DNA of 64,000 nt, taken from Vicinamibacterales bacterium (GTDB lineage Bacteria; Acidobacteriota; Vicinamibacteria; Vicinamibacterales; UBA8438). Made by a program: the position numbers and the translations under genes. The stretch is from NCBI GenBank assembly GCA_965220695.1, contig OZ244838.1, positions 2,530,377-2,594,376 of the forward strand, in the 5' to 3' direction. This document shows positions 13,842 to 54,010 of this stretch, in pieces. The notes beneath the pieces were generated by a model. That model was not told where the DNA came from. It ran no database searches and worked only from the letters and a program-made list of their open reading frames with translations. Position 1 is the first letter of the stretch; each line of letters begins with the position of its first letter.

Positions 13842-13920
13842 ACTGTCGGACAACGTGGACATCACAACAGGGCGCACCGATGGGTTTGCAGGGTGCGCCG
13901 CGCGTGACGGGAGTGGGGCG

Positions 13921-15171
13921 ATGCGAACGACACGGAGCCGGTGCGGCCGGGCAACCGGTCGCAGAGCGCGCTCTTCGCGCGGATCCTTCGTGATCGGTTC
14001 CCACCGGCAGTGCGTCCGTCTGGGGCTGCTTGGCGCGGCACTGGTAACGGCCTGCGCCGGGCCGACGCAGCCGCATGCGATCGATGCGCAAGGCCGCCCG
14101 GCGGTCATTGATGAGAGGATTACGATTACGTGGCCGGTGGGTGTGCCCTCGGGAGTGATCGCTAACATTGAGATTTGCGGCGATCGCGCGTATCTGCGTG
14201 TGGCTCGGCAGCAAGTGATCCGCGTGGTTGACCTCGCTGCAGGACGGGTGGTGGGGCAGATCGGCCGCGGCGGTGAAGGGCCCGGCGAGTTGCGGTCCCC
14301 GACAGGTCTCATGGTGGATTGCGCCCGCGGGAGGCTCTATGTCGGCGAGGGTCCCTCCGGCATCACCGTCTATCGCCTTTCGGACGGGGAGTACGTGCGA
14401 AAATATTTCCAGCCGGATACCTTCGGGTTGACCGTCGGGTCTCCGATGTTTCTGTCGCCGGACGGCGCACGCCTGTTTGCGGGAGGATTGTGGGCGGCAT
14501 CAATGGAGCGATGGCGGGGCTTCAACCGCCGCCCGCAGGATGAAGTGCTGGCAGGGATGCAATTGGGCTTGGCCGTGTCCCTGGCGGACGGCGCCGCGAC
14601 ACCGTTGTTGTCGGGCCCGATCGAAACCACCTGTATCGGTTTGTTCGAGAACTGCCGTACCGTGACGATAGCGCGTGTGGACGGCGCGTCGGACCCGTGG
14701 GTCGTTGCGCAGGCCACCGCGACCTCGCTCGGCGTGTACGACCACGACGGTGCGCTGGTGCGCACCATCGACGTGCGGTCGCCGTCGTTTCTGCGCGACG
14801 GGTCCCGCGCGCAGCGCATGAGCCGCGACGGCGGCGGGCTGGTGGCCATGGCGGATTGGGGCCTGACCAACAGCACCATCCGGATGGTCTACGCATTCGG
14901 GAATGTTATCGCCACCGTGCACCGACATCATGCAGTGGAGTACAACCAGCTGGGAACGATGCAGTACAACGTCTTCATGAACCTGCACTCGCACGATGGG
15001 GATGCGCTTGTCAGTGACATCCGCCTGCCGGGTCTTCCGCTGGGACGCGACGACACGCACCTGCTGTTCATCGACTGGGGGCAGGCCGGACGCAGGATGG
15101 CCTTCGACGCGGTGGACCTCGTGCGCGTGCCGGTCCTGGCCGGCGAGGCCGGCTTCGTGCGGGGCGAATAG
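13921..15171 (+). CDS. NHL-repeat-like beta-propeller lipoprotein, paralog 1 of 5
   Basis: Track ORF 13855..15171. ATG 13921 (MRTTRSRCGR...) is conserved in all five paralogs. Lipobox-like LGAALVTAC. NHL-like motif GQIGRGGEGPGELRSP. Conserved Cys pairs (ICGDRAY, DCARGRL, TCIG..ENCRTV). Confidence 0.7.
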   Translation: MRTTRSRCGRATGRRARSSRGSFVIGSHRQCVRLGLLGAALVTACAGPTQPHAIDAQGRPAVIDERITITWPVGVPSGVIANIEICGDRAYLRVARQQVIRVVDLAAGRVVGQIGRGGEGPGELRSPTGLMVDCARGRLYVGEGPSGITVYRLSDGEYVRKYFQPDTFGLTVGSPMFLSPDGARLFAGGLWAASMERWRGFNRRPQDEVLAGMQLGLAVSLADGAATPLLSGPIETTCIGLFENCRTVTIARVDGASDPWVVAQATATSLGVYDHDGALVRTIDVRSPSFLRDGSRAQRMSRDGGGLVAMADWGLTNSTIRMVYAFGNVIATVHRHHAVEYNQLGTMQYNVFMNLHSHDGDALVSDIRLPGLPLGRDDTHLLFIDWGQAGRRMAFDAVDLVRVPVLAGEAGFVRGE

Positions 15172-15172
15172 C

Positions 15173-15736
15173 ATGGAGGACTCGTTGGATGCACCCGGAT
15201 CCACGACCGGCACGTCGACGGCGGCAACTGCCGACGGCGAGGCGGCGAGGTCGACGGTCGCCGGCCGTACGGTCGGGCGGCCCCGTTCCAGGTTGCGTGT
15301 GGCGGCCAGACTGCTGTTGGGGGCGCTGATCCTCGTGTCCGTCGGCGTGCTCATCAGCGACTACCGGCGGCAAGTCACCTGGACACGGGATCTGGCGGCG
15401 GCGTATGCGTTCGTCGCGGACCATCCCGAGGTGTCACGGTATCTCCCCTGCTTTTGCGGTTGCGGTCAACAGGCGGGACATTCGTCCGTGGACAGTTGCT
15501 TCGTGAGTCGACGGGACGATGCAGGGAACGTCGTCTCCGAGAACGCACACGCCAGAACCTGACCGGTGTGCGTCGACATCGCGCGTGTCGCGATGCGGAT
15601 GCACCAAGGCGGCGACACGGTTTCCGAGATTCAAGGCGCCATCGATGGAGCATACGGGGCGACGAATGTCCTCAGAACCGACACCCCGGCATGGCCAGAC
15701 CAGCGACCGGCCGCGGAGGCCGAGACGCCGCAGTAG
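15173..15736 (+). CDS. Membrane-anchored PCYCGC-family protein with in-frame TGA at 15560-15562 (candidate selenocysteine, U-P-V-C), copy 1
   Basis: ATG lies 1 nt after the NHL-1 stop (TAGcATG). TM helix RLRVAARLLLGALILVSVGVLI. AYAFVADHPEVSRYLPCFCGCGQQAGHSSVDSCF matches the PCYCGC signature. The track ORF stops at TGA 15560, but the frame stays open 57 more codons (PVCVDIARVAMRMHQGGDTVSEIQGAIDGAYG...) to TAG 15734-15736. A hairpin follows the TGA. Confidence 0.6.
15568..15604 (+). promoter_or_regulatory. SECIS-like hairpin 6 nt downstream of TGA 15560
   Basis: GUGCGUC/GGAUGCAC outer stem (7 bp, one G-U), a 2x2 internal loop, CAUCGCG/CGCGAUG inner stem (7 bp) and apical loop CGUGU at 15584-15588, i.e. 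22-26 nt after the UGA. Identical in all three copies. Confidence 0.5.
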
Positions 15737-15860
15737 TGGCAGGTGGACCTGGCACCGGAGGCTATATGGCTCGACACGTTCCAACCGCATGGTCCTCAGC
15801 GGCCCATAGCAGTCCGTGGTGAAACCCGCGTTGCACCGAGATCGGCGATGCGCGCGCTGA

Positions 15861-16147
15861 GCAAGACCTGTAGGGGCAACCCTTGTGGTTGCCCTGTTGT
15901 ACGCAAGACCTGTAGGGGCAACCCTTGTGGTTGCCCTGTTGTACGCAAGACCTGTAGGGGCAACCCTTGTGGTTGCCCTGTTGTACGCAAGACCTGTAGG
16001 CGCAACCCTTGTAGTTGCCCTGTTGTACGCAAGACCTGTAGGGGCAACCCTTGTGGTTGCCCTGTTGTACGCAAGACCTGTAGGCGCAACCCTTGTAGTT
16101 GCCCTGTTGTACGCAAGACCTGTAGGGGCAACCCTTGTGGTTGCCCT
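15861..16147 (+). repeat. Tandem array of 7 x 42-bp REP-like hairpin units
   Basis: Unit gcaagacctgtaGGGGCAACCcttgtGGTTGCCCtgttgtac (8-bp stem, 5-nt loop). Copies start at 15861, 15903, 15945, 15987, 16029, 16071 and 16113. Copies 4 and 6 carry the same two substitutions (taggCgcaacccttgtAgttgccc). Confidence 0.9.
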
Positions 16148-16197
16148 CTTCGTCAGCAGGAACAACGACGCGCAGCAGGATGCAGCGTGAAACAGCA

Positions 16198-16257
16198 GAA
16201 TTCAGCGGGGAAAGGCTGAATTCAGCGGGAGAGCTCAGAATTCAGCGGGGATCGAAC
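16198..16257 (+). repeat. Tandem array of 3 x 20-bp GAATTCAGCGGG units
   Basis: GAATTCAGCGGG at 16198, 16218 and 16238, plus a degenerate fourth unit. The core (C)TGAATTCAG is palindromic and AT-rich relative to the genome. Confidence 0.85.
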
Positions 16258-16429
16258 GCAGCGGGGCTTTTGCCACGGACTGCTACTAACCGCCTGATCA
16301 GGTCACCGTCTCCGAGCTCCCGCACTGCAGATGACGCGAACGAGGATCAGCGTTCCCCTCCTCTACTCCATCTCATCCTCGTTCAGAGCCGTTGCCGGCC
16401 CCAACCGATTCAGACCGCCGTCGGGCGCC

Positions 16430-16620
16430 TCACAAACTGTATCCGTCCGGCGAGTACGCGACGGCCTCCGGGAAGTAGATGTTCTCGATGATGGATCGAC
16501 CCATGTAGACGGGCGAGGTCGCGGTCCTGTTCCGAGCCAGGGTCCGCATGAACGCGTTCTCGTCCTTCGGCGCCGGGATGCCCACCTCAAGGCAGATGCG
16601 GACTATGCCGGGGACGACGC
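16430..16620 (-). pseudogene. Dead 3'-terminal fragment of the alpha/beta hydrolase gene found intact at 26805..27962
   Basis: Track ORF 16430..16639 ends ...GIVRICLEVGIPAPKDENAFMRTLARNRTATSPVYMGRSIIENIYFPEAVAYSPDGYSL. The intact gene's C-terminus reads ...GIVRTCLEVGIPAPEDENAFMRTLARNRTATSPVYMGRSIIENIYFPGAVAYSPDGYSF. No N-terminal part is present. Confidence 0.85.
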
Positions 16621-16657
16621 GCGCCGGCAGAGGGTACACCGATGGGTCCGTAAGGAG

Positions 16658-16702
16658 TCTGCGCCGTCAGTAGGTTGTAAGCTGTATTCTCTGCGGCGCA
16701 GA
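16658..16702 (+). promoter_or_regulatory. Conserved leader element with 9-bp inverted repeat upstream of NHL paralogs 2-5
   Basis: TCTGCGCCG-(27 nt AT-rich: tcagtaggttgtaagctgtattctctg)-CGGCGCAGA. Near-identical blocks lie ahead of the starts at 19462, 20983 and 22503. Function unknown. Confidence 0.3.
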
Positions 16703-16738
16703 TTCCACGAGCGCGCCGCGCGAGAGGGACGCGGAACG

Positions 16739-17998
16739 ATGCGAACGACACGGCGTCGATGTGGCCGGGCGTGGCGGGTGATCGGCTACCGTGGGCACTC
16801 TCAGGGCAGGTCGTCCGTTGTCGGTTCGCACCGGCATTTTGTTTACCTGGGGCTGCTTGGCGCGGCACTGGTGACGGCCTGCGGCGGACCGACGCAGCCG
16901 TATGCGGTCGATGCGCAAGGGCGTCCGGCGGTCATTGATGACAGGATGACGATAACGTGGCCGGTGGGCGTGCCCTCGGGGCTGATTGCTAGCATCGAGA
17001 CCTGCGGCGGTCGCGCGTATCTGCACGTTGCTGGGCAGCAAGTGTTCCGCGTGGTTGACCTCGCCGCCGGGCGGGTTGTGGGGCAGATTGGCCGCGGCGG
17101 CGAAGGGCCCGGCGAGTTGCGGCAGCCGATAAGTCTCCTGGCGGATTGCGCACGCGGGAGGCTCTTCGTCGGCGAGGCTCCGGCCGGCATCACGGTCTAT
17201 CGCCTTCCGGACGGGGAGTACCTGCGAGAATTCTCCCTGCCGTGGCGTACGTTCGGGTTGTCTACCTTTACTCCGATGTTTCTGTCGCCGGACGGCGCAC
17301 GCCTGTTTGCGGGCGGGTTGTGGGCATCAAGAGATCGATGGCAGGGCTTTAGCCGGCGCCCGCAGGATGAAGTGCTGGCGGGGATGCAATCGGGTCTGGC
17401 CTTGTCCCTGGTGGACGGCGCGGCGGCGCCCTTGTTCTCGAGCCCGATCGAACCCGCCTGCATCGGATCGCAAAACGACTGTCGCACCGTGGCGATAGCG
17501 CGTGTGGAGGGGGCGCCGGACCCGTGGATCGTCGCGCAGGCCACCGCGACCTCGCTCGGCGTGTACGACGACGACGGTGCGCTGGTGCGCACCATCGACG
17601 TGCGGTCGCCGTTGTTCCTGCGCGACGGGTTCCGCGCGCGGCGCATGAGCCGCGATGGCGGGGGCTTTGCGGCCATGGTGGATTGGGGCCTGACCAACAG
17701 CACCGTCGGGAACGTCTACGCATTCGGGGACGTGATCGCCACCGTGCACCGACATCATGCAGTGGAGTACAACCAGCCGGGGCCCCTGCAGTACAACGTC
17801 CTCATGAACCTGCACTCGCACGATGGGGATGGGCTGGTCAGCGACATCCGCCTGCCGGGTCTTCCGCTGGGACGCGACGACACGCACCTGCTCTTCATCG
17901 ACTGGGGGCAGGCTGGACGCAGGATGGCCTTCGACGCGGTGGACCTCGTGCGGGTGCCGGTCGTGGCCGGCGAGGCCGGCTTCGTGCGGGGCGAATAG
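16739..17998 (+). CDS. NHL-repeat-like beta-propeller lipoprotein, paralog 2
   Basis: Track ORF 16331..17998. Conserved ATG 16739 (MRTTRRRCGRAW...), LGAALVTAC lipobox, GQIGRGGEGPGELRQP. High identity to paralog 1. Confidence 0.7.
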   Translation: MRTTRRRCGRAWRVIGYRGHSQGRSSVVGSHRHFVYLGLLGAALVTACGGPTQPYAVDAQGRPAVIDDRMTITWPVGVPSGLIASIETCGGRAYLHVAGQQVFRVVDLAAGRVVGQIGRGGEGPGELRQPISLLADCARGRLFVGEAPAGITVYRLPDGEYLREFSLPWRTFGLSTFTPMFLSPDGARLFAGGLWASRDRWQGFSRRPQDEVLAGMQSGLALSLVDGAAAPLFSSPIEPACIGSQNDCRTVAIARVEGAPDPWIVAQATATSLGVYDDDGALVRTIDVRSPLFLRDGFRARRMSRDGGGFAAMVDWGLTNSTVGNVYAFGDVIATVHRHHAVEYNQPGPLQYNVLMNLHSHDGDGLVSDIRLPGLPLGRDDTHLLFIDWGQAGRRMAFDAVDLVRVPVVAGEAGFVRGE

Positions 17999-17999
17999 C

Positions 18000-18542
18000 A
18001 TGGAGGACTCTGTGGACGCACCCGGATCCACGACCGACACGTCGACGGCGGCGAGTTCGACGGTCGCCGGCCGAACGGTCGGGCGGCCCCGTTCCAGGAT
18101 GCGTGTGGCGGCCAGACTGCTGTTGGGGGCGCTGATCCTCGTGTCCGCCGGCGTGCTCATCAGCGACTACCGGCGGCAAGTCACCTGGACGCGAGATCTT
18201 GCGGCGGCGTATGCGTTCGTCGCGGACCATCCCGAGGTGTCACGGTATCTCCCCTGCTTTTGCGGTTGCGGTCAACAGGCGGGACATTCGTCCGTGGACA
18301 GTTGCTTCGTGAGTCGACGGGACGAGGCAGGGAACGTCGTCTCCGAGAACGCACACGCCAGAACCTGACCGGTGTGCGTCGACATCGCGCGTGTCGCGAT
18401 GCGGATGCACCAACGCGGCGACACGGTTTCCGAGATTCAAGGCGCCATCGATGGAGCATACGGGGCGACGAATGTCCTCAGAACCGACACCCCGGCATGG
18501 CCAGACCAGCGACCGGCCGCGGAGGCCGAGACGCCGCAGTAG
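18000..18542 (+). CDS. PCYCGC-family candidate selenoprotein, copy 2 (in-frame TGA 18366-18368)
   Basis: ATG lies 1 nt after the NHL-2 stop. Same architecture as copy 1, with a 7-aa deletion in the N-terminal tail. The frame continues from the TGA to TAG 18540-18542. Confidence 0.6.
18374..18410 (+). promoter_or_regulatory. SECIS-like hairpin after TGA 18366
   Basis: Sequence identical to the hairpin at 15568-15604. Confidence 0.5.
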
Positions 18543-18664
18543 CGGCGGGTGGACCTGGCGCCGGAGGCTATGGTTCGACCCGCTCCAACCGCATGGTCCT
18601 CAGCGGCCCATAGCAGTCCGTGGTGAAACCCGCGTTGCACCGAGATCGGCGATGCGCGCGCTGA

Positions 18665-18825
18665 GCAAGACCTGTAGGGGCAACCCTTGTGGTTGCCCTG
18701 TTGTACGCAAGACCTGTAGGGGCAACCCTTGTGGTTGCCCTGTTGTACGCAAGACCTGTAGGCGCAACCCTTGTAGTTGCCCTGTTGTACGCAAGACCTG
18801 TAGGGGCAACCCTTGTGGTTGCCCT
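18665..18825 (+). repeat. Tandem array of 4 x 42-bp REP-like hairpin units
   Basis: Units start at 18665, 18707, 18749 (variant type) and 18791. Same consensus as the array at 15861. Confidence 0.9.
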
Positions 18826-18875
18826 CTTCGTCAGCAGGAACAACGACGCGCAGCAGGATGCAGCGTGAAACAGCA

Positions 18876-18975
18876 GAATTCAGCGGGGAATGGCTGAATT
18901 CAGCGGGTGAGCTCAGAATTCAGCGGGGAAAGGCTGAATTCAGCGGGAGAGCTCAGAATTCAGCGGGGATCGAAT
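18876..18975 (+). repeat. Tandem array of 5 x 20-bp GAATTCAGCGGG units
   Basis: GAATTC at 18876, 18896, 18916, 18936 and 18956, plus a degenerate terminal unit. Confidence 0.85.
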
Positions 18976-19158
18976 GCAGCGGGGCTTTTGCCACGGACTG
19001 CTACTAACCGCCAGATCCGGTCACCGGCTCCGAGCTCCCGCACTGCAGATGACTCCAACGAGGATCAGCGTTCCACTCCTCTACTCCATCTCATCCTCCT
19101 TCAGAGCCCTTGCCGGCCCCAACCGATTCGGACCGCCGCCGCCGCACCGTCGGGCGCC

Positions 19159-19340
19159 TCAGAAACTGTATCCGTCCGGCGAGTACGCGATGGCCCCCGG
19201 GAAGTAGATGTTCTCGATGATGGAGCGACCCATGTAGACGGGGGACGTCGCGGTCCTGTTTCGAGCCACGGTCGGCATGAACGCGTTCTCGTCCTCCGCC
19301 GCCGGAATGCCCAACTCGAGGCAGGTGCGGACTATGCCGG
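19159..19340 (-). pseudogene. Second dead 3'-terminal fragment of the alpha/beta hydrolase gene
   Basis: Track ORF 19159..19368 ends ...GIVRTCLELGIPAAEDENAFMPTVARNRTATSPVYMGRSIIENIYFPGAIAYSPDGYSF. Confidence 0.85.
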
Positions 19341-19461
19341 GGACAACGCGGGACGGCACAGGGTGCACCGATGGGTCCGCAAGGAGTCTGCGCCGTCAGT
19401 ATGTTGTAAGCTGTATTTTCTGCGCCGCAGATTGCGTCGCGCGAGAGGGGCGCGGAACGAA

Positions 19462-20736
19462 ATGCGAACGACACGGAGCCGATGTGGCCGGGCGTGGCGG
19501 GTGATCCGCTACCGTGGGCACTTTCGGCGCAGGTCGTCCGTTGTTGGTTCCCACCGGCATTTCGTTTGCCTGGGACTGCTTGGCGCGGCGCTGATAGCGG
19601 CCTGCGGCGAGCCGAGGCAGTATGCGGTCGATGCTCACGGGCGTCCGGCGGTCATTGACGATCGCGTGACGATAACGTGGCCGGTGGACGTGCCCTCGGG
19701 ACTGATCCTTCTTGCCGCGACCTGCGGTGATCGCATGTATCTGCGCGCGACAGGCCAGCAACGCGCGTCTCGCCAGCAAGTGATCCGCGTGGTTGACCTC
19801 GCCGCCGGACGGGTGGTGGGGCAGATCGGCCGAGGCGGCGAAGGGCCCGGCGAGTTGGAACAGCCGACAACTCTCCTGGCGGATTGCGCACGCGGGAGGC
19901 TCTTCGTCGGCGACCCTCCGGCCGGCATCAAGGTATATCGCCTTCCGGACGGGAAGTATCTGCGAGATTTCTCCCTGCCGTGGCGTACGTTCGGGTTGTC
20001 CACTTTGACTCCGATGTTTCTGTCGCCGGATGGCGCACACCTGTTTGCGGGCGGGTTGTGGGCATCAACAGATCAATGGATGGGCTTCAACGCGCGTCCG
20101 CAGGATGAAATGCTGGCGGCGATGCAATTGGGCTTGGCCTTGTCCCTGGCGGACGGCACGGCGGCGCCGTTGTTCTCTGGTCCGGTCGAAACTGCCTGCA
20201 TTGGATTGCCCGAGAACTGCCGCACGGTGACGATAGCGCGTGTGGACGGGGCGCCGGACCCGTGGATCGTCGCGCAGGCCACCGCGACCTCGCTCGGCGT
20301 GTACGACGACGACGGGGCGCTGGTGCGCACCATCGACGTGCGGTCGCCATCGTTCCTGCGGGACGGATCCCGGGCGCGGCGCATGAGACGCGATGGTGGG
20401 GGCTATGCGGCCATGGTGGATTGGGGCCTGACCAACAGCACCATCCGGAACGTCTACGCATTCGGGGACGTGATCGCGACCGTGCATCGGTATCACGCCA
20501 CGGAGTACAACCAGCAGGGGCCCCTGCAGTACAACGTCTTCATGAACCTGCACTCGTACGATGGGGATGGGCTGGTCAGCGACATCCGCCTGCCGGGTCA
20601 TCCGGTGGGCCGCGACGACACGCACCTGCTCTTCATCGACTGGGGGCAGGCCGGACGCAGGATGGCCTTCGACGCGGTGGACCTCGTGCGCGTGCCGGTC
20701 CTGGCCGGCGAGGCCGGCTTCGTGCGGGGCGAATAG
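19462..20736 (+). CDS. NHL-repeat-like beta-propeller lipoprotein, paralog 3
   Basis: Track ORF 18907..20736. Conserved ATG 19462 (MRTTRSRCGRAW...). Carries a short internal duplication (LRATGQQRASRQQVIRVVD) that is shared with paralog 4. Confidence 0.7.
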   Translation: MRTTRSRCGRAWRVIRYRGHFRRRSSVVGSHRHFVCLGLLGAALIAACGEPRQYAVDAHGRPAVIDDRVTITWPVDVPSGLILLAATCGDRMYLRATGQQRASRQQVIRVVDLAAGRVVGQIGRGGEGPGELEQPTTLLADCARGRLFVGDPPAGIKVYRLPDGKYLRDFSLPWRTFGLSTLTPMFLSPDGAHLFAGGLWASTDQWMGFNARPQDEMLAAMQLGLALSLADGTAAPLFSGPVETACIGLPENCRTVTIARVDGAPDPWIVAQATATSLGVYDDDGALVRTIDVRSPSFLRDGSRARRMRRDGGGYAAMVDWGLTNSTIRNVYAFGDVIATVHRYHATEYNQQGPLQYNVFMNLHSYDGDGLVSDIRLPGHPVGRDDTHLLFIDWGQAGRRMAFDAVDLVRVPVLAGEAGFVRGE

Positions 20737-20737
20737 C

Positions 20738-20865
20738 GGGGATTGCACGCGGAGAGTTCGGCTGCCGGGTCCCACCGCTCGCCGCCGTGCGATCTGACGA
20801 TGAGCCTCGGCACGCGGGCGAAGTCAAGCGACGCCTTCGTACGCTGGCCGGCCGCAATACACCGG
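20738..20865 (-). pseudogene. 128-bp internal fragment of the 12778..13311 gene, copy A
   Basis: Aligns to 13011-13138 (ggggatYgcacgcggaga...gtcccaccgctcgccgccgtgcgatctgac...acaccgg). Starts 2 nt after the NHL-3 stop. Confidence 0.8.
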
Positions 20866-20982
20866 ATCGGCACAGGGTGCACCGATCGGTCGGCAAGGAG
20901 TCGGCGCCGTCAGTATGTTGTAAGTTGATTTCTTGCGACGCAGATTCGCCGCTTGCGCCGCGCGAGAGGGGCGCGGAACGAA

Positions 20983-22260
20983 ATGCGAACGACACGGAGC
21001 CGATGTGGCCGGGCGTGGCGGGTGATCGGCTACCGTAGGCACTCTCAGCGCAGGTGTTCCGTGATCGGTTCCCACCGGCAGTTCGCCTGTCTGGGGCTGC
21101 TTGGCGCGGCGCTGGTGACGGCCTGCGCCGGACCGACGCAGCCGTATGCGGTCGATGCGCAAGGGCGCCCGGCGGTCATCGACGATCGGGTGACGATAAC
21201 GTGGCCGGCGGGCGTGCCCTCGGGACTGATCGTTCTTGCCGCGACCTGCGGTGATCGCGTGTATCTGCGCGCGACTGGCCAACAACGCGCGTCTCGCCAG
21301 CAAGTGATCCGCGTGGTTGACCTCGCCGCCGGACGGGTGGTGGGGCAGATCGGCCGCGGCGGCGAAGGGCCCGGCGAGTTGCAGCAGCCGACAACTCTCC
21401 TGGCGGATTGCGCACGCGGGAGGCTCTTCGTCGGCGACCCTCCGGCCGGCATCAAGGTCTATCGCCTTCCGGACGGGGAGTACCTGCGAGATTTCTCCCT
21501 GCCGTGGCGTACGTTCGATTTGTCCACCTTGACTCCGATGTTTCTGTCGCCGGATGGCGCACGCCTGTTTGCGGGCGGGATGTGGGCATCAACAGAACAA
21601 TGGCTGGGCTTCAACGCGCGCCCGCAGGATAAATTGCTGGCGGGGATGCAATTGGGCTTGGCCTTGTCCCTGGCGGACGGCGCGGCGGCACCGTTGTTCT
21701 CTGGTCCGGTCGAAACCGCCTGCATTGGATTGCCCGAGAACTGCCGCAACGTGACGATAGCGCGTGTGGACGGGGCGCCGGACCCGTGGATCGTCGCGCA
21801 GGCCACCGCGACCTCGCTCGGCGTGTACGACGACGACGGCGCGCTGGTGCGCACCATCGACGTGCGGTCGCCGTCGTTCCTGCGCGACGGGTCTCGCGCG
21901 CGGCGCATGAGCCGCGATGGCGGGGGCTATTCGGCCATGGTGGATTGGGGCCTGACCAACAGCACCATCCAGGACGTCTACGCATTCGGGGACGTGATCG
22001 CCACCGTGCATCATTATCACGCCACGGAGCGCAACCAGCAGGGGCCCCTGCAGTACAACGTCTTCATGAACCTGCACTCGCACGATGGGGATGGGCTGGT
22101 CAGCGACATCCGCCTGCCGGGTCATCCGGTGGGCCGCGACGACACGCACCTGCTCTTCGTCGACTGGGGGCAGGCCGGACGCAGGATGGCCTTCGACGCC
22201 GTGGACCTCGTGCGCGTGCCGGTCCTGGCCGGCGAGGCCGGCTTCGTGCGGGGCGAATAG
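20983..22260 (+). CDS. NHL-repeat-like beta-propeller lipoprotein, paralog 4
   Basis: Track ORF 20953..22260. Conserved ATG 20983. Same motifs as the other paralogs. Confidence 0.7.
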   Translation: MRTTRSRCGRAWRVIGYRRHSQRRCSVIGSHRQFACLGLLGAALVTACAGPTQPYAVDAQGRPAVIDDRVTITWPAGVPSGLIVLAATCGDRVYLRATGQQRASRQQVIRVVDLAAGRVVGQIGRGGEGPGELQQPTTLLADCARGRLFVGDPPAGIKVYRLPDGEYLRDFSLPWRTFDLSTLTPMFLSPDGARLFAGGMWASTEQWLGFNARPQDKLLAGMQLGLALSLADGAAAPLFSGPVETACIGLPENCRNVTIARVDGAPDPWIVAQATATSLGVYDDDGALVRTIDVRSPSFLRDGSRARRMSRDGGGYSAMVDWGLTNSTIQDVYAFGDVIATVHHYHATERNQQGPLQYNVFMNLHSHDGDGLVSDIRLPGHPVGRDDTHLLFVDWGQAGRRMAFDAVDLVRVPVLAGEAGFVRGE

Positions 22261-22261
22261 C

Positions 22262-22388
22262 GGGGATCGCACGCGGAAAGCTCTGCTGCCGGGTCCCACC
22301 GCTCGCCGCCGTGCGATCTGACGATGAGCCTCAAGGCGGGCGAAGTCAAGCGACTCCTTCGTACGCTGGCCGGCCGCAATACACCGGG
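22262..22388 (-). pseudogene. 128-bp internal fragment of the 12778..13311 gene, copy B
   Basis: Aligns to 13011-13138. Starts 2 nt after the NHL-4 stop. Confidence 0.8.
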
Positions 22389-22502
22389 CCGGCACAGGGT
22401 GCACCGCTGGGTCCGCAAGAAGTCTGCGCCCACAGATGTTGTAGGCTGTATTTTCTGCGGCGCAGACTCCCCGAGTGCGCCGCGCGAGAGGGGCGCGGAA
22501 CG

Positions 22503-23771
22503 ATGCGAACGACACGGCGCCGATGTGGCCGGGCGTGGCGGGTGACCGGGCACCGTGTGCGCTCTCAGGGCAGGTCGTCCGTTGTCGGTTCGTACCGGCA
22601 TTTTGTTTACCTGGGGCTGCTTGGCGCGGCGCTGATAACGGCCTGCGCCGAGCCGAGGCAGTATGCGGTCGATGCGCACGGGCGTCCGGCGGTCATCGAC
22701 GAACGGGTGACGATAACGTGGCCGGTGGGCGTGCCCTCGGGACTGATCAACGGTGTCGAGACCTGCGGCGATCGCGCGTATCTGCACGTGTCTCGGCAGC
22801 AAGCGATCGGCATCCGCGTGGTTGACCTCGTCGCCGGACGGGTGGTGGGGCAGATCGGCCGAGGCGGCGAAGGGCCCGGCGAGTTGCGGCAACCGATAAG
22901 TCTCCTGGCGGATTGCGCACGCGGGAGGCTCTTCGTCGGCGAGGCTCCGGCCGGCATCACGGTCTATCGCCTTTCGGACGGGGAGTACCTGCGAGAATAC
23001 CCCCTGCCGCGGCGTCCCTTCACCTTCGGGTTTTCCACCCTTACTCCGATGTTTCTGTCGCCGGACGGCGCACGCCTGTTTGCGGGCGGGTTGTGGGCAT
23101 CAAGAGAACGATGGCAGGACTTCAGTTGGCGCCCGCAGGATGAAGTGCTGGCGGGGATGCAATCGGGTCTGGCCTTGTCGCTGGCGGACGGCGCGGCGGC
23201 GCCCTTGTTCTCGAGCCCGATCGAACCCGCCTGCATCGGATCGCACAACGACTGCCGCATCGTGACGATAGCGCGTGTGGACAGGGCGCCGGACCCGTGG
23301 ATCGTCGCGCAGGCCACTGCGACCTCGCTCGGCGTGTACGACGACGACGGCGCGCTGGTGCGCACCATCGACGTGCGGTCGCCGTCGTTCCTGCGCGACG
23401 GGTCCCGCGCGCGGCGCATGAGCCGCGATGGCGGGGGCTTTGCGGCCATGGCGGATTGGGGCCTGACCAACAGCACCATCCGGAGGGTCTACGCATTCGG
23501 GGACGTGATCGCCACCGTGCACCGACATCATGCAGTGGAGTACAACCAGCCGGAATACCTCCAGTACAACGTCTTCATGAACCTGCACTCGCACGATGGG
23601 GATGGGCTGGTCAGCGACATCCGCCTGCCGGGTCTTCCGCTGGGACGCGACGACACGCACCTGCTGTTCATCGACTGGGGGCAGGCCGGACGCAGGAACG
23701 CCTTTGATGAAGTGGACCTCGTGCGCGTGCCGGTCCTGGCCGGCGAGGCCGGCTTCGTGCGGGGCGAATAG
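22503..23771 (+). CDS. NHL-repeat-like beta-propeller lipoprotein, paralog 5
   Basis: In frame within track ORF 21786..23771. Conserved ATG 22503 (MRTTRRRCGRAW...). The upstream part of the track ORF is an out-of-context read-through across paralog 4. Confidence 0.7.
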   Translation: MRTTRRRCGRAWRVTGHRVRSQGRSSVVGSYRHFVYLGLLGAALITACAEPRQYAVDAHGRPAVIDERVTITWPVGVPSGLINGVETCGDRAYLHVSRQQAIGIRVVDLVAGRVVGQIGRGGEGPGELRQPISLLADCARGRLFVGEAPAGITVYRLSDGEYLREYPLPRRPFTFGFSTLTPMFLSPDGARLFAGGLWASRERWQDFSWRPQDEVLAGMQSGLALSLADGAAAPLFSSPIEPACIGSHNDCRIVTIARVDRAPDPWIVAQATATSLGVYDDDGALVRTIDVRSPSFLRDGSRARRMSRDGGGFAAMADWGLTNSTIRRVYAFGDVIATVHRHHAVEYNQPEYLQYNVFMNLHSHDGDGLVSDIRLPGLPLGRDDTHLLFIDWGQAGRRNAFDEVDLVRVPVLAGEAGFVRGE

Positions 23772-23772
23772 C

Positions 23773-24336
23773 ATGGAGGACTCGTTGGACGCACCCGGAT
23801 CCACGACCGGCGCGGCGACGGCGGCAACTGCCGACGGCGAGGCGGCGAGGTCGACGGTCGCCGGCCGTTCGGTCGGGCGGCCCCGTTCCAGGTTGCGTGT
23901 GGCGGCCAGACTGCTGTTGGGGGCGCTGATCCTCGTGTCCGTCGGCGTGCTCATCAGCGACTACCGGCGGCAAGTCACCTGGACACGGGATCTGGCGGCG
24001 GCGTATGCGTTCGTCGCGGACCATCCCGAGGTGTCACGGTATCTCCCCTGCTTTTGCGGTTGCGGTCAACAGGCGGGACATTCGTCCGTGGACAGTTGCT
24101 TCGTGAGTCGACGGGATGAGGCAGGACACGTCGTCTCAGAGAACGCACACGCCAGAACCTGACCGGTGTGCGTCGACATCGCGCGTGTCGCGATGCGGAT
24201 GCACCAACGCGGCGACACGGTTTCCGAGATTCAAGGCGCCATCGATGGAGCATACGGGGCGACGAATGTCCTCAGAACCGACACCCCGGCATGGTCAGGC
24301 CAGCGACCAGCCGCGGAGGCCGAGACGCCGCAGTAG
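23773..24336 (+). CDS. PCYCGC-family candidate selenoprotein, copy 3 (in-frame TGA 24160-24162)
   Basis: ATG lies 1 nt after the NHL-5 stop. The frame continues from the TGA to TAG 24334-24336. A few substitutions relative to copy 1 occur on both sides of the TGA. Confidence 0.6.
24168..24204 (+). promoter_or_regulatory. SECIS-like hairpin after TGA 24160
   Basis: Sequence identical to the hairpin at 15568-15604. Confidence 0.5.
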
Positions 24337-24896
24337 CGACAATCTCCCCGCTGCCTGCAGCTTCCACCGGTAGTATCCAACAGGCGCTGCCTGCGAACCA
24401 GGGGTTTCTTGGACAATTGCGGGCGACAGGGTGCTCGCGGGAAGAGTGTCGAGATGAGGAAGCAAGATCAGCGGCCGCTGATGTCCCTGACACTGTCAAC
24501 CGCACGTCTGGCGGTAGCGTCATCCTGCTGGATCGGCCGAAGGTGGGCCGCACGGACTCATGGGCGCGGGCTCGGCGCGAACCCAGCCAACTGCGAGGAG
24601 CGACGGATGGAGGCACGGTGCCGGGGCTCCGACCTGACCTTCCCGGAAGTAATCGATGACTTCGTGCGAAGACAGGAGCGGCTGTAATCCGGCGGATCGC
24701 CTCGGCGGACTTCGTCCGGCTACCGCCGTGCGAGTCCAACCTGTGTGTTCCGCGAGGGTTCGAACGTCGGCCGAACATCGGTTTGTGGGCGGCACGCCGC
24801 CGTGCTGCCGTATAATGCAGCCATGAGATGGGGTGCAACGTTGGAGCCGGCGCATCCTGGGGCCGAGAAGAATCAGGGCCGTCGAGGCTTGAAGAA

Positions 24897-25580
24897 ATGA
24901 CTGAGCCCGAGCTGATTCCCTTTGATATACAGCGTTCTGACATCTCCATTCAAGGGACGTTCGAGTCAGAGTTGTGGTGTCTTTTTCACGATGTGCCGCG
25001 ACTCTATTCCGGGCTGCTGCACGGGTTGCAGGACACCGGGATCACGCCAAACAGTATCAAGGTTGACAACGGAGACGGGAGCCTCGGTGGCTACAATGTC
25101 CAGTTCTGGCTGATCGATTTTCGTGTCATGGTGAGGGTCCGCCTCGACCGGTTCGAGATCGACTCTCGGAACATCGCGCAGTCGGACATAGCTCCGGTGG
25201 AGCATGTTCTGGTGGGGCTGGTCGATGCACTTGCTGCGTCAACATCAGGCTTTCGGGTGGCGAACTACACCGTGGATCTTCACTTGCACGGTGATGCCAT
25301 AGGCGTGGACCGAAATGAGTATCTGAGCCGCTTCGTGAAGAACGCTCCTGATCTCGGACCGAGCCTCGGTTCAGGATGCGTGTTCTATTTTGGCGATCAG
25401 CCTGGCGCAGCGCTCAGGACTGTGTCGGTAGACTTGTCGGGTGTGGTGCCGGGTAAGGTCTATGTGCGGCTTTATGCTTCCTTGGATGGTGCTATCGCTC
25501 CCGGAGATCTGAGGACGGTGGTGGAGAAGGAAGCGAAGGACAGCTTGGCTGCGATGGGCCTGAAAGCACAGGGGAAGTAG
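24897..25580 (+). CDS. Hypothetical protein (227 aa), lower-GC insert
   Basis: Track ORF 24828..25580. ATG 24897 (MTEPELIPFDIQ...) is preceded by GAGG. Composition is noticeably more AT-rich than the flanks. No family recognised. Confidence 0.5.
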   Translation: MTEPELIPFDIQRSDISIQGTFESELWCLFHDVPRLYSGLLHGLQDTGITPNSIKVDNGDGSLGGYNVQFWLIDFRVMVRVRLDRFEIDSRNIAQSDIAPVEHVLVGLVDALAASTSGFRVANYTVDLHLHGDAIGVDRNEYLSRFVKNAPDLGPSLGSGCVFYFGDQPGAALRTVSVDLSGVVPGKVYVRLYASLDGAIAPGDLRTVVEKEAKDSLAAMGLKAQGK

Positions 25581-25586
25581 CAGTCA

Positions 25587-26330
25587 GTGGTTCAGAACAT
25601 GCCTTCGCGGATTGGCGCGTTGATCGAGTGGCGACAATCGGCGATTCCCCCGTTCGGAACGCCGATTCCAGGGCAATCGCCTTCTCCGCAGCCGGGACCG
25701 CGCTGTTTTGGGTCTCCTCCGGTTGCAAGGCAGACTTCGGCGAGCGAACGGCGGTCGGGGTTCCTGCCTGGTGCGATCGGCGATTCTGCCTTCTTTGAGG
25801 AGGCAAGACTCGCGTGGGGCGGACTGGTTTCCGACAGCCGGCAAGTTCTTGGACGCATGCCCAGAGTGGCTGCAGCCGGCCGTGTATTGACTGTAGGCCT
25901 TGGGCCGTGGTCTCGCGAAACATCGACGCCTGAGTTGCTGTCCGAGCTGATGAAGTCGCCGGTCGCGCACGGGGAGACTGCAGCCTGGCAAACCAGGACT
26001 TTACCGATGGCGTCTGTCATCTGGTCCCTGGTCGAGCGTCAGCAGGTTGGAGCTGCCAGGCAACTCTTGTCGTCGTTGCCCGACGCGCTTGAGTATCGAC
26101 GGCTACGTTCGCTCCTGCGGCGACCACGCACCTGGTCGGCACCAAGAAGGGATCGAGAGCGGTCGGTAGATTTTCGGTGGCTGCGCCAGCACAGCCGCGA
26201 CTACGTCGGGCGGTGGGTCGCCCTTGCCGGCGGAAACCTACTGGCTGAGGCCGATTCTCTTCACGCGCTGCGCAGTCAACTCCGACAAGGCGCTCCACAG
26301 GCGAGGCCTCTGATCCACTTCATTAGGTAG
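25587..26330 (+). CDS. Protein with C-terminal DUF5678-like domain (start uncertain; alternative ATG 26007)
   Basis: The C-terminus FRWLRQHSRDYVGRWVALAGGNLLAEADSLHALRSQL...PLIHFI resembles the small W..H...Y.G.WVAl.g domain often found next to retropepsin-like proteases. The N-terminal 140 aa are low-complexity and may not be coding. Confidence 0.4.
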   Translation: MVQNMPSRIGALIEWRQSAIPPFGTPIPGQSPSPQPGPRCFGSPPVARQTSASERRSGFLPGAIGDSAFFEEARLAWGGLVSDSRQVLGRMPRVAAAGRVLTVGLGPWSRETSTPELLSELMKSPVAHGETAAWQTRTLPMASVIWSLVERQQVGAARQLLSSLPDALEYRRLRSLLRRPRTWSAPRRDRERSVDFRWLRQHSRDYVGRWVALAGGNLLAEADSLHALRSQLRQGAPQARPLIHFIR

Positions 26331-26334
26331 CCTG

Positions 26335-26790
26335 ATGCCGATGCTGGAACTTGAGGGAAAGCCGTTCAGCGTCGGGCGGGCTACGTATCTCGACACGCCC
26401 CCGGCTTCGCCGGGCGCGTCTTCCAGGATCTACGTCAAGATCGAGTTCGAAGGAGAGGACGGCCCCGTGATGCCTTTGGCGCTTCTCGACACCGGCGCCG
26501 AATGGTCTGTACTGGAGCGCGAGATTGCCGAGAGCGTTGGCTTGACAGGTGCTGATGGGCAGGCGATTACGTTAAGGCACAAGAACGGCGAGAGTTCTGG
26601 AAAGCTCGTCAAGGCGAACGTCCGACTTCTCGCCGATGAGGGCGAAGACCTTGTGGTGGAGGCAACGGTGTTTGTCCCCGACGAGAATCACGACGTCGGC
26701 GGCACATTCGTGGGTTACACGGCGTTGCTAGAGCAGGTGAGGCTCGGGCTCGATCCTCAGAACAATCAGATCTACTTCGGCAGATATTGA
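26335..26790 (+). CDS. Retropepsin-like (clan AA) aspartic protease
   Basis: 151-aa ORF with the catalytic-type motif LLDTGAEWSVL (D-T-G-A). Size is typical of single-lobe bacterial retropepsin-like proteins. Confidence 0.65.
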   Translation: MPMLELEGKPFSVGRATYLDTPPASPGASSRIYVKIEFEGEDGPVMPLALLDTGAEWSVLEREIAESVGLTGADGQAITLRHKNGESSGKLVKANVRLLADEGEDLVVEATVFVPDENHDVGGTFVGYTALLEQVRLGLDPQNNQIYFGRY

Positions 26791-26804
26791 GACCGTCGGG
26801 CGCC

Positions 26805-27962
26805 TCAGAAACTGTATCCGTCCGGCGAGTACGCGACGGCCCCCGGGAAGTAGATGTTCTCGATGATGGAGCGACCCATGTAAACGGGGGACGTCGCGGT
26901 CCTGTTCCGAGCCAGAGTCCGCATGAACGCGTTCTCGTCCTCCGGCGCCGGGATGCCCACCTCGAGGCAGGTGCGGACGATCCCGGCCATCTCCTCGGGC
27001 TCGTCGCGTTGCAGGTAGTGGTTGGCCGTGGGCAGCAGCCAGTAGCTGCTCTCCGCCGCCCGCTTGTCGAGATAGTTGTACCAGATGTGATTGCCGATGC
27101 GGGGCGGGTTCACCGTGTCCAGAAGCCCCCAGATGAGCGCCGTCGGGATCGGGCTCTCGCGCAGGGTGTCCAGCCAGCGGTACTCGTTCGCTGTTCGCTC
27201 AAGCAGGTACTTGCCGACATACAGCCGTGCGCCGATCCCGTCGTTGAACGCCTGGATGTCAGCGTAGGCGACCTGCCGCGGCGTGCCTTCCGTCACCCGC
27301 GGCCGGGCCTGCTGCGCCCGGATCAGCTCGGGACCTCGCACGGCGTCCTGAATCGCGTACTGGCCCGGGCTGAGGTTGGCCAGGGGCAGAAAGAGCCCGC
27401 CGTTGGATATGAAGTGATAGGTGATCTCGTAGGCCCTCTCCTCACGCGCCAGGTAGTTGCCCAGAAAGGCGAAGCCGACGCTGCCGCCGCGATCGTGGGT
27501 CAGGAGATGGAACCGGGACAGTCCCACGACCTCCCGGACGAAGTGATCGACGAGCTTCGCGTCGTCCTCCAGCATGTACGAATAGCCGTCTTGCGGCTTG
27601 TCCGAGAAGCCGAAACCGGGAAAGTCGAGGACAGCGACGAAGTAATCCTCTTCCAGGAAGGGAATCATCTCCCGGAAGTCGAAACTCGACGTGGGATAGC
27701 CGTGCAGAATCAGCAGCGCCGGGTTGGCGCGGTTCCCGAAGGTCCGGTAGAAGACATTGACTCGACGGCCCTCGTTGTTGGGCGTCGTCGAGGTCCACTC
27801 GAAGTACTCTCCGGAGCGGTACCACTCTTCGGCGAGCGGGGAATAGAATGTGAAATCGGTCTGGGGAGCGCGCGTCTGCGAGCCGATCACGGTCGCACTC
27901 GCGTAGGGGCTCACGAGCGCCGGACCCGCGGCCGCGAGCTTCAGGAATGAACGTCTATCCAT
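26805..27962 (-). CDS. Tat-exported alpha/beta hydrolase
   Basis: 385 aa. Twin-arginine-like leader MDRRSFLKLAAAGPALV. LILHGYPTSSFDFREM and HDRGGSVG (nucleophile-elbow-like) motifs. Its 3' end is the source of the fragments at 16430 and 19159. Confidence 0.75.
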   Translation of the reverse strand: MDRRSFLKLAAAGPALVSPYASATVIGSQTRAPQTDFTFYSPLAEEWYRSGEYFEWTSTTPNNEGRRVNVFYRTFGNRANPALLILHGYPTSSFDFREMIPFLEEDYFVAVLDFPGFGFSDKPQDGYSYMLEDDAKLVDHFVREVVGLSRFHLLTHDRGGSVGFAFLGNYLAREERAYEITYHFISNGGLFLPLANLSPGQYAIQDAVRGPELIRAQQARPRVTEGTPRQVAYADIQAFNDGIGARLYVGKYLLERTANEYRWLDTLRESPIPTALIWGLLDTVNPPRIGNHIWYNYLDKRAAESSYWLLPTANHYLQRDEPEEMAGIVRTCLEVGIPAPEDENAFMRTLARNRTATSPVYMGRSIIENIYFPGAVAYSPDGYSF

Positions 27963-28301: not shown

Positions 28302-29495
28302 ATGACATATGGACACGTCCTGAGGGCGATGACGATAGTGCTTGCGGTCGTCGGCGCCGCCGCCGCGCAAACGCCGGAGACGGTGCAGCCGGCGCACGAC
28401 AACCTGGAGCCGGGCACGCGCACCGACGACCTGGGCATCACCATCGGCATCCCGGTGGAGCATCCCGGACGCCGCTACCCGGCGTCGCACGAGTTTCCCA
28501 CCGGGCCCGAGATCGGCGAGCGCCTGCCGACGTTCACGCTGCCCAACCAGCAGGGCCGGCTCATCGACTATCACGCCGATCGGGGCGACTCGAAATCGAT
28601 TGTGGTGTTCTATCGCTCGGCGGTGTGGTGACCGTACTGCCGCACGCAGCTGGTCGAGCTGCAAGACAACCTGGACCTCTTCGAGGACGCCGGCATCCGC
28701 GTCTACGGCATCAGCTACGACCGCCCGGGCCAGCTCCTGGCCTTTGCCGAGCAGTACGACGTGACCTACGACCTGCTGTCGGACGTCGATTCGGCGGTGA
28801 TTCGGGAGTTCGGCATCCTCAACACGCTGATCTCTCCCGACGACCCTGAACAGGCGGCCGGACGCAGTTTCCATGGCGTGCCGTTCCCGGGTGTCTACGT
28901 GACGGACGAGCACGGCGTGGTCACGGAGAAGTTCTTCCACCGCCACTATGCGACGCGTGAATCGGCGGGCAGCATCCGCGACTCGGCGCTGGGCGAGATT
29001 CTGGCGCGTCACGAGGTGCCGGCCGTCGAGCTGGGCACCGACCAGGTGCGGATCTCCGCCTTCCTGTCCGATACCTCGCTGAAGTTCGAGACCCAGTCGA
29101 CGATCTACGTGCGGTTCGAGCTCGAAGAGGGCCTGCACATGTATGGCCGGCCGCTGCCCGACGGGTACATCGCCTCGGGGGCCACCATACCGGACACGCC
29201 CGGGTTGCGAGTGGGGGCCGCGCGATACCCGCCGACCCACCCTCGGGAGTTCCCGGAGCTGGGGGTCACGCTCAACGTCTACGAGGGGGTTGTCGACGTC
29301 GCGATTCCGGCGACGCCGAATTCCGAGCTGTTCAACCCCGGGGGCCAGGACCAGCCGGAGGAACTGATCGTCCCGGTGTCGGTGCTGTTCCAGGTCTGCA
29401 GCGAGACGATCTGCTACACACCGCGGACGGAGACGGTGTCGCTGACGCTGCCTGTCGCGCCCCTGCTGAGGCCCGGCGCTCCGCGAGCACGGTAG
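28302..29495 (+). CDS. Secreted redoxin/AhpC-TSA-type thiol:disulfide oxidoreductase selenoprotein (Sec at TGA 28629-28631) fused to a DsbD-N-terminal-like domain
   Basis: Track ORFs 28128..28631 and 28761..29495 are in the same frame, separated only by the TGA. The context IVVFYRSAVW-[TGA]-PYCRTQLVELQ is the W-C-P-x-C redoxin active site with Sec replacing the first Cys. Signal peptide MTYGHVLRAMTIVLAVVGAAAAQ. C-terminus ...FQVCSETICYTPR is DsbD-alpha-like. Confidence 0.8.
28646..28662 (+). promoter_or_regulatory. SECIS-like hairpin after TGA 28629
   Basis: GCAGCU-GGUCG-AGCUGC (6-bp stem). The GGUC-containing loop begins 21 nt after the UGA, reminiscent of the E. coli fdhF SECIS loop. The stem is short, so this is tentative. 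Confidence 0.4.
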
Positions 29496-53465: not shown

Positions 53466-53710
53466 CGGTTGCGCTCCTCTCGATGGGCACACCACCCGGC
53501 ATGCCGTACCGCACCCCGGTTCCGGGCACCCGGCTCGAGGCGCCTCGATACACGCCTCGTTGACCGGCTCGCTGGTTCCGGACGCTCTGCGCGCCGGCCC
53601 GGCCATTCCCCCTGTGTCAGGCTACCGGGATTCTACCCAATCACCGCGGGAGCGTGGTCGGTTTTCTCATCCTGTCCGCGAGCGTCCCGTGTCGGCGCCC
53701 GTCTACGGTC

Positions 53711-53990
53711 GCGGCAATCGGGCAACCACAAGGGTTGCCCCTACGGTGCCATTGCGGGCCACGGCGGGCGCGGCAACCGGGCAACCACAAGGGTTGCCCC
53801 TACGGTGCCATTGCGGGCCACGACGGGCGCGGCAATCGGGCAACCACAAGGGCTGCCCCTACAGTGTCATTGCGGGCCGCGTCGGGCGCGGCAATCGGGC
53901 AACCACAAGGGCTGCCCCTACAGTGTCATTGCGGGCCGCGTCGGGCGCGGCAATCGGGCAACCACAAGGGTTGCCCCTACGGTGCCACGC
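53711..53990 (-). repeat. Tandem array of ~5 x 59-bp units containing the same REP hairpin core in inverted orientation
   Basis: Unit gcggcaatcGGGCAACCacaagGGTTGCCCctacggtgccattgcgggccacggcgggc, starting at 53711, 53770, 53829, 53888 and 53947. The core is the reverse complement of the 15861 unit core. Confidence 0.9.
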
Positions 53991-54010
53991 GGGGCTCTTG
54001 CCGCGGGCCG

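Follow-up and report, generated by a model that had tools for sequence, protein, structure and literature searches.

A probable selenoprotein gene of the PCYCGC family, present in three copies in a Vicinamibacterales genome

PF13798, also named OS_HP4, is listed as a UxxC selenoprotein family (PMC9312934, PMC13188914), and the OS_HP names originate from a study of the Olavius symbionts (PMC1976440). Acidobacteria and Chloroflexi are known users of selenocysteine (Sec) (PMC1794560, PMC12013277). PCYCGC (lipo)proteins with Cys are found in Bacillus, Paenibacillus and Parageobacillus, and one of them is encoded beside an Fe3+-binding protein (PMC13068155). The gene described here is the third of three copies within the window, a stretch of 64 kb. 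It is of a kind already catalogued and is a new member, from Vicinamibacterales, of a known selenoprotein family. The features of copy 3 are as follows.

23773 to 24336, plus strand: probable PCYCGC-family selenoprotein gene, copy 3; its translation has 187 residues including U130
24160 to 24162, plus strand: in-frame TGA, read as Sec (U130, motif U-P-V-C) from the family alignment and homologous TGA codons
24168 to 24204, plus strand: SECIS-like hairpin within the coding sequence, from folding, conservation and dS
24334 to 24336, plus strand: TAG, the probable true stop of copy 3, from translation and copy comparison

The gene starts with ATG at 23773, passes the in-frame TGA after 129 residues and runs through 57 further codons to the TAG. 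The sequence-only reading had placed the TGA at 24160, the hairpin at 24168-24204 and the end of the open frame at TAG 24334, and all of these coordinates were right. The encoded protein is composed of an Arg-rich N-terminus, one hydrophobic helix (residues about 44-62) and a Cys/His-rich domain; the hydrophobic segment LLLGALILVSVGVLI comes after the Arg-rich stretch. Copy 3 is most probably an intact PCYCGC/CYCXC (PF13798, 'OS_HP4') selenoprotein gene that reads through the TGA to the TAG, and we put the probability of this reading at roughly 85%. We infer Sec insertion at U130 from the alignment of the TGA with Cys, the domain continuing across the TGA, the TGA in other phyla, the hairpin, the dS values and the literature. 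The same lines of evidence support the earlier proposal that the functional gene ends at the TAG. In the proposed mechanism, the UGA at 24160 would be recoded as Sec by SelB and Sec-tRNA(Sec), both of which would be recruited by the in-frame hairpin starting about 8 nt past the UGA. Translation would then continue to the TAG and yield the protein of 187 residues.

The public record of the copy 3 product is P0001, a protein of 129 aa, as gene callers stop at the TGA. The open frame of 57 codons is unremarkable by itself, with a chance of about 27% at 67% GC. Since the open frame and the hairpin alone are within chance, the significance of the TGA gene reading comes from the comparative data. 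The annotated length and the chance level of the frame are also what would be expected if the TGA were a genuine stop, with copy 3 being a pseudogene or a 129-residue fragment whose frame behind the TGA has not yet decayed. However, such a truncated product would be devoid of the invariant CxxC and of a third of the domain. When the U was replaced by Cys, the protein matched PF13798 with 80.5 bits (E 1.6e-22), against a gathering threshold of 25 bits, over residues 73-172 and hence across the TGA. The part before the TGA alone matched profile positions 53-106 with 43.3 bits, and the peptide after the TGA alone matched positions 111-151 with 21 bits (E 2.7e-4), colinear with the first part. The product thus belongs to PF13798 on its score of 80.5 bits and also on the ligand set tested, P-C-[YF]-C-G-C ... 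H ... C-[FY] ... H-x3-C-x2-C, which it carries.

An exhaustive search with P0004, the closest full-length homologue, gave 930 representatives, and 156 of them were aligned. At the position of the TGA, 148 of the 156 homologues have Cys, and this residue opens the single CxxC motif of the family. Close forms with Cys are P0004 and L009, both with CAVC, and the TGA of copy 3 makes a Sec/Cys pair with its homologues. C93, C95, C97, H103, C109, H126, U130 and C133 of copy 3 align to invariant columns of this alignment. Downstream of the TGA, the conserved residues C133, G147, I153, I157, D158, Y161, T169, T171 and P172 are all present, and the sole departure among the strongly conserved downstream positions of the 156 sequences is R154, which is Q in copy 3. 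The model NF041379, 'CYCXC family (seleno)protein', matched the protein with 62.2 bits (E 3.7e-17) over profile positions 10-89 of 90, and this score does not reach the equivalog cut-off of 90 bits. On this score, the copy 3 protein is a divergent relative of this model and not an equivalog member.

The alignment also bears on decoding of the TGA by means other than Sec. The UGA could be read through by a near-cognate Trp or Cys tRNA or under a code in which TGA is a sense codon, or the region could encode two polypeptides with a restart at GTG 24166. An ORF of 56 codons does begin at this GTG (24166-24336), and a few homologues (P0068, P0218 and P0226) are written with W at the Sec position. 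These W forms are probably TGA codons that the gene caller read under another genetic code. On the other hand, the genome, at 67% GC, has ordinary TGA stops and many of its ORFs end in TGA. The alignment of the codon with the Cys of CxxC is the signature of a Sec/Cys pair, and the spacing between the codon and the hairpin is that of a typical bacterial SECIS. Decoding without Sec, or as two polypeptides, is extremely unlikely in our judgement, and the Sec reading is kept in what follows.

The TGA at the same codon was found in several other lineages. It is present in the complete 6.87-Mb Vicinamibacterales chromosome OZ244051.1 (L001/L007), whose protein is 64% identical to that of the window. 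It is also present in a Gemmatimonadales MAG (L010) and in a Sphaerobacterales MAG (L011), both with conserved in-frame sequence after it. A second clade, which surfaced in a homology search seeded with the truncated, W and G forms, contributes four metagenome contigs (L040-L043) with the TGA at the same codon in the motif ...MAPT-U-xIC[LM]GVTR.... In-frame conservation downstream of the TGA was observed in all of these, that is, in L001/L007, L010, L011 and L040-L043. In the 'MAPT-U-xICLGVTR' clade, 95 of the 120 best database matches are ORFs whose end falls directly in front of the Sec codon, and three are written with W there. Public annotations thus seem to truncate these genes systematically. 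The truncated database ORFs sit among the proteins P0237-P0332. P0150 (L044), written with G at the Sec position, was considered as another mistranslated TGA and rejected, as its DNA has GGA.

The rates of substitution between the window and L001 were compared on both sides of the TGA. Before the TGA, dS is 0.92 and omega is 0.23. After the TGA and outside the hairpin, dS is 1.06 and omega is 0.52, with zero indels. Purifying selection past the TGA is weaker than before it. Nevertheless, the genuine stop sits poorly with these data. Lineages from three phyla share the TGA at this codon, as do at least 95 database clusters, each time with conserved domain sequence after it. Moreover, although dS between the window and L001 is close to 1, neither an indel nor a stop has arisen and the family-conserved residues are kept.

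The bSECISearch model, which reportedly sets distance and loop rules for bacterial SECIS elements, was used as the criterion for the hairpin. A stem-loop located soon after the UGA, with G in its apical loop, is formed by 24168-24204. Its lower stem has 7 bp (24168-74/24198-204) and its upper stem also has 7 bp (24177-83/24189-95), with a 2x2 internal loop between them. The apical loop CGUGU is at 24184-88 and starts 24 nt past the U of the UGA. Folding alone is not significant, as the energy of -23.6 kcal/mol (z = -1.36) is equalled by 22 of 200 dinucleotide shuffles, and an Rfam scan of the whole 64-kb window at gathering thresholds gave zero matches. The upper stem is 97% paired across 10 distinct Sec-form sequences. 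Among these, it has two compensatory pairs, one GC<->AU (in four sequences) and one GC<->CG. Its covariation score is reached by 1 of 500 shuffles, and the pairing collapses when the register is slid. When both stems were considered with only 6 distinct sequences, covariation was not significant (98/500 shuffles). The lower stem varies in register between clades, and the covariation support is drawn from few lineages.

The Sec forms were also compared with Cys forms. The Cys control set consists of matches from a metagenome scan, for which the back-translated search pattern had a Cys codon in place of the Sec codon and so retrieved Cys forms only. In the 52 nt past the codon, the mean folding energy is -23.9 kcal/mol (z = -1.9) for the Sec forms and -16.1 kcal/mol (z = -0.1) for 25 Cys forms. 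Both stems with at least 6 of 7 pairs occur in six of seven Sec forms as against 1 of 25 Cys forms. All seven upper-stem pairs are retained in the Cys forms L022, L028 and L037, which have TGC or TGT in place of TGA. Their stem is either a fossil SECIS, a phenomenon that has been described (PMC1794560), or a palindrome that the peptide D-I-A-R-D-[AV]-M brings about. Since some Cys forms also retain the upper stem, the encoded peptide D-I-A-R-x-A-M probably accounts for part of the pairing. The SECIS constrains the encoded peptide to ARVAM, ARAAM or TRxVM. Between the window and L001, the 14 codons of the hairpin have a dS of 0.11 and an omega of 0.30. There is one synonymous change over 10 synonymous sites, where about five would be expected at the surrounding rate (binomial p about 0.005, a hand estimate). 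This suppression of synonymous change over the hairpin points to a constraint at the RNA level.

The Sec machinery was searched for in the 64-kb window of the 5.8-Mb contig and in the homologue loci. None of SelA, SelB and SelD was found by tblastn with the E. coli proteins in the window or in the homologue loci examined, and a tRNA scan of the window gave zero tRNAs, hence no tRNA-Sec there. A second gene with an in-frame TGA lies about 4 kb downstream of copy 3.

28302 to 29495, plus strand: candidate selenoprotein gene with AhpC/TSA and DsbD_N domains; in-frame TGA at 28629-28631

This gene is unrelated to PCYCGC. It has a signal peptide and the motif ...FYRSAVW-U-PYC..., and its AhpC/TSA domain spans the TGA and is followed by the DsbD_N domain. 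Judged by GC content at the codon positions, one and the same frame is coding before and after the TGA at 28629. A hairpin, GCAGCU-GGUCG-AGCUGC, follows this TGA, and the TGA is also found in the sister genome L008. A second UxxC gene with a TGA argues that this genome would decode UGA as Sec.

The three PCYCGC copies are part of a tandem array with beta-propeller genes.

13855 to 15171, plus strand: beta-propeller gene 1, followed by PCYCGC copy 1 and a spacer
15173 to 15736, plus strand: PCYCGC copy 1, with TGA at 15560-15562 and TAG at 15734-15736
16739 to 17998, plus strand: beta-propeller gene 2, followed by PCYCGC copy 2 and a spacer
18000 to 18542, plus strand: PCYCGC copy 2, with TGA at 18366-18368, TAG at 18540-18542 and an N-terminal tail shortened by an in-frame deletion of 21 nt
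19462 to 20736 and 20983 to 22260, plus strand: beta-propeller genes 3 and 4, with no PCYCGC gene after them
22503 to 23771, plus strand: beta-propeller gene 5, the upstream partner of PCYCGC copy 3, which follows
24337 to 26792, no strand assigned: segment of 2.45 kb with lower GC (56-63% vs 67%), without a counterpart in the syntenic L008

The motif PCFCGCG occurs three times in the window (15446, 18252 and 24046), where 0.01 would be expected by chance, and it bears out the description of 23773-24336 as the third near-identical copy of a TGA-containing PCYCGC gene. The TGA is at the same codon in all three copies. As the copies arose by recent duplication, they amount to a single observation, and their similarity leaves room for a frame behind a genuine stop that has not had time to decay. 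Copy 3 differs from copy 1 by nine codons before the TGA and by four after it, with zero indels or stops. The four are G146R (GGC to CGC), P175S, D176G and a synonymous change of CCG to CCA. The sequence-only reading had reported point substitutions only, from W-P-D to W-S-G and from CCG to CCA; this is right as far as it goes but overlooked G146R, which is common to copy 2.

The five propeller paralogues (13855-23771) are 85-93% identical and encode proteins of the lipoprotein type with six blades and a lipobox, ...L[IV][AT]AC. They match DUF5128 weakly, and propeller 5 scores 20.7 bits where the cut-off is 22.9. PCYCGC genes follow only three of the five. The TAG of propeller 5 lies one base before the ATG of copy 3, and the same 1-nt junction is found at copies 1 and 2. 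This suggests that the propeller gene and the PCYCGC gene are translationally coupled, and since the ATG is one base past the upstream TAG, the two are probably co-translated.

Homology among the three copies had been said to end exactly at the TAG, and this had been offered as an argument that the gene ends there. Copy 3 indeed ceases to resemble the other two copies 2-5 nt past the TAG, but copies 1 and 2 are alike further. This break in homology arises because the segment 24337-26792 replaces the spacer found past copies 1 and 2. The boundary thus reflects one replacement by the 2.45-kb segment, and as an argument for the gene end it is weak. The breakpoint is at most weakly indicative of selection for an intact ORF, with which it is compatible. 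The segment is probably an acquired insertion or replacement. It contains ORFs at 24828-25580 and 25587-26330, which have no family matches, and one at 26335-26790 that encodes a retropepsin-like Asp_protease_2. An alpha/beta-hydrolase gene follows at 26805-27962 on the minus strand. The spacers past copies 1 and 2 end, at 16418-16611 and 19146-19340, in a 194-nt duplicate of the hydrolase 3' end (26793-26986; 94% identical), and therefore the duplicated unit once abutted the hydrolase gene.

Several repeats were seen in the window. Past copies 1 and 2 there are 42-nt tandem repeats at 15861-16147 and 18665-18825 (6.8 and 3.8 copies, respectively, with 96% matches), and each unit holds the hairpin GGGCAACC-CTTGT-GGTTGCCC. 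Shorter repeats of 20/40 nt are located at 16195-16251 and 18873-18969. The repeats past copies 1 and 2 look like REP-like or terminator-like elements. Self-BLAST detected another tandem repeat at 53705-53993, with a period of about 59 nt and 90-94% identity.

Decay of the region after the TGA in related genomes, with the upstream part conserved, had been named as the observation that would speak against the gene reading. The search for such decay gave a mixed outcome, indels at 1x coverage in L005 and loss of the whole gene in L008, by which the reading is not refuted. L008 (OZ253576.1) is a syntenic sister with 96% identical flanks and has three propellers, one PCYCGC copy, the spacer and the hydrolase. 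Its PCYCGC copy (6001-6300) has a 1-nt deletion in the L-P-C codons, followed by a second deletion that runs from within the PCFCGC motif to the spacer behind the gene. Since this second deletion already begins before the TGA, the copy is dead in its entirety and not merely in the part after the TGA. An intact PCYCGC copy was not found in the L008 genome. L005 is a 7.5-kb contig with TGA copies at 1235-1800 and 5229-5790, each of which has a 1-nt indel past the TGA. One of the indels is inside a C4 run, and copy b has ATA for ATG, a cluster of substitutions and a +1 frameshift. The contig carries the name tag '1x' and is probably a single read, so the indels are untrustworthy, while real decay of a redundant paralogue is possible. 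No decay past the TGA was seen in the distant lineages compared. The L005 indels and the truncated L008 copy are the remaining points in favour of a genuine stop. Considering the 1x coverage of L005 and the start of the L008 deletion upstream of the TGA, together with the conservation described above, we regard a genuine stop as very improbable.

The same two relatives indicate that the PCYCGC gene is dispensable in relatives and that some paralogues may be decaying. This raises the question of whether the family truly uses Sec while copy 3 itself is redundant, unexpressed or decaying, with one of the three copies in use. Three near-identical copies lie within 9 kb, paralogues decay elsewhere (ATA for ATG and the +1 frameshift in copy b of L005, the truncated copy of L008), and the flank of copy 3 has been rearranged by the 2.45-kb replacement. 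In contrast, the ATG, TGA, hairpin and TAG of copy 3 are all intact and its upstream junction is the same 1 nt as at copies 1 and 2. The three non-synonymous changes after the TGA are at variable positions (146, and 175-176 in the non-conserved tail). Moreover, an identical gene (L039) was recovered from a second sample with the tag '12x', that is, at 12x coverage. It is improbable that copy 3 is a disused member of a genuine Sec family, and an intact selenoprotein gene remains the preferred reading.

A single N-terminal transmembrane helix would anchor the protein and leave its Cys/His-rich domain outside the cytoplasm. This location is predicted from the N-terminal hydrophobic helix and from relatives which carry a lipobox or a TAT signal and go by the name '(lipo)protein'. 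The U-x-x-C pair would act as a redox-active or metal-binding selenol/thiol site. Both the topology and the biochemical role are predictions from sequence features. We would most readily take it for an extracytoplasmic protein that is redox-active or binds a metal, possibly copper, with U130 and C133 as its reactive pair. The AlphaFold model of P0004, a Cys homologue, is confident, with a pLDDT of 88. Searches of the PDB for it gave zero significant matches, the best being E 3.2 by fold and a ferredoxin at E 0.33 by sequence. With no PDB neighbour by fold or by sequence, the chemistry is deduced only from the ligand set of six Cys/Sec and two His. The genes next to the Sec forms L040, L043 and L042 and next to L044 encode CopC/CopD, DsbD_TM (CcdA-type) and TlpA-like redoxins, and further neighbours are ArsR, arsenate-reductase and MIP genes and DUF305/CtaG. 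These neighbours give hints of a link to copper or metalloid handling and to thiol redox in the envelope. The RND pumps beside the array were considered as a metal clue and rejected, since they are of the generic multidrug type. It is conceivable, though we hold it rather doubtful, that the propeller lipoprotein and the Sec PCYCGC protein form a previously undescribed extracytoplasmic module which binds or reduces a metal or metalloid at its selenol/thiol cluster and has been under dosage selection. If this were true, amplification of the array (five propellers and three PCYCGC genes) as against the loss in the sister genome would reflect recent dosage selection. Copper is the best guess for the metal of such a module, from neighbour genes elsewhere.

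The Sec reading corrects an annotation error, as gene callers cut the gene at the TGA and leave 129 aa on record. In the sister clade, at least 95 of the 120 closest database clusters are cut short in the same way. The known hosts of the PCYCGC/OS_HP4 selenoprotein family would gain Vicinamibacterales, which are abundant soil Acidobacteriota, as well as Gemmatimonadales and Sphaerobacterales. In addition, a Sec form with a defined UxxC site may serve as a handle on the active site of a fold without a solved relative, which is a modest gain.

Copy 3 can be compared with four known systems. Thioredoxin-fold UxxC selenoproteins (AhpC/TSA and Prx-like, for example the candidate at 28302-29495) share with it the UxxC motif and a probable extracytoplasmic thiol/selenol chemistry. 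However, the PCYCGC fold is unrelated, the P0004 model having no significant match in the PDB. The PCYCGC (lipo)proteins of Bacillus, Paenibacillus and Parageobacillus have the same domain, with C-x-C-x-C ... H ... C ... H ... C-x-x-C, and are predicted to be extracytoplasmic, as is copy 3. They differ in having Cys where copy 3 has Sec and a lipobox signal peptide. The SECIS of the E. coli fdhF type is, like the hairpin of copy 3, a stem-loop within the coding sequence a few nt past the UGA, with conserved Gs in the loop (C-G-U-G-N), and the suppressed synonymous change over the copy 3 hairpin fits this likeness. On the other hand, the hairpin of copy 3 shows no sequence similarity to it, its lower-stem register varies by clade and its binding by SelB is putative. 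The closest system is the CYCXC/OS_HP4 family (NF041379, PF13798). It has the same Pfam domain, Sec as the first residue of the only CxxC, a hairpin directly past the UGA within the ORF, and common Cys homologues. Copy 3 departs from it in scoring 62 bits against the cut-off of 90 and in having a predicted N-terminal transmembrane anchor in place of a lipoprotein or TAT signal. It also stands apart in belonging to Acidobacteriota, in its three tandem copies and in its coupling to a beta-propeller lipoprotein gene.
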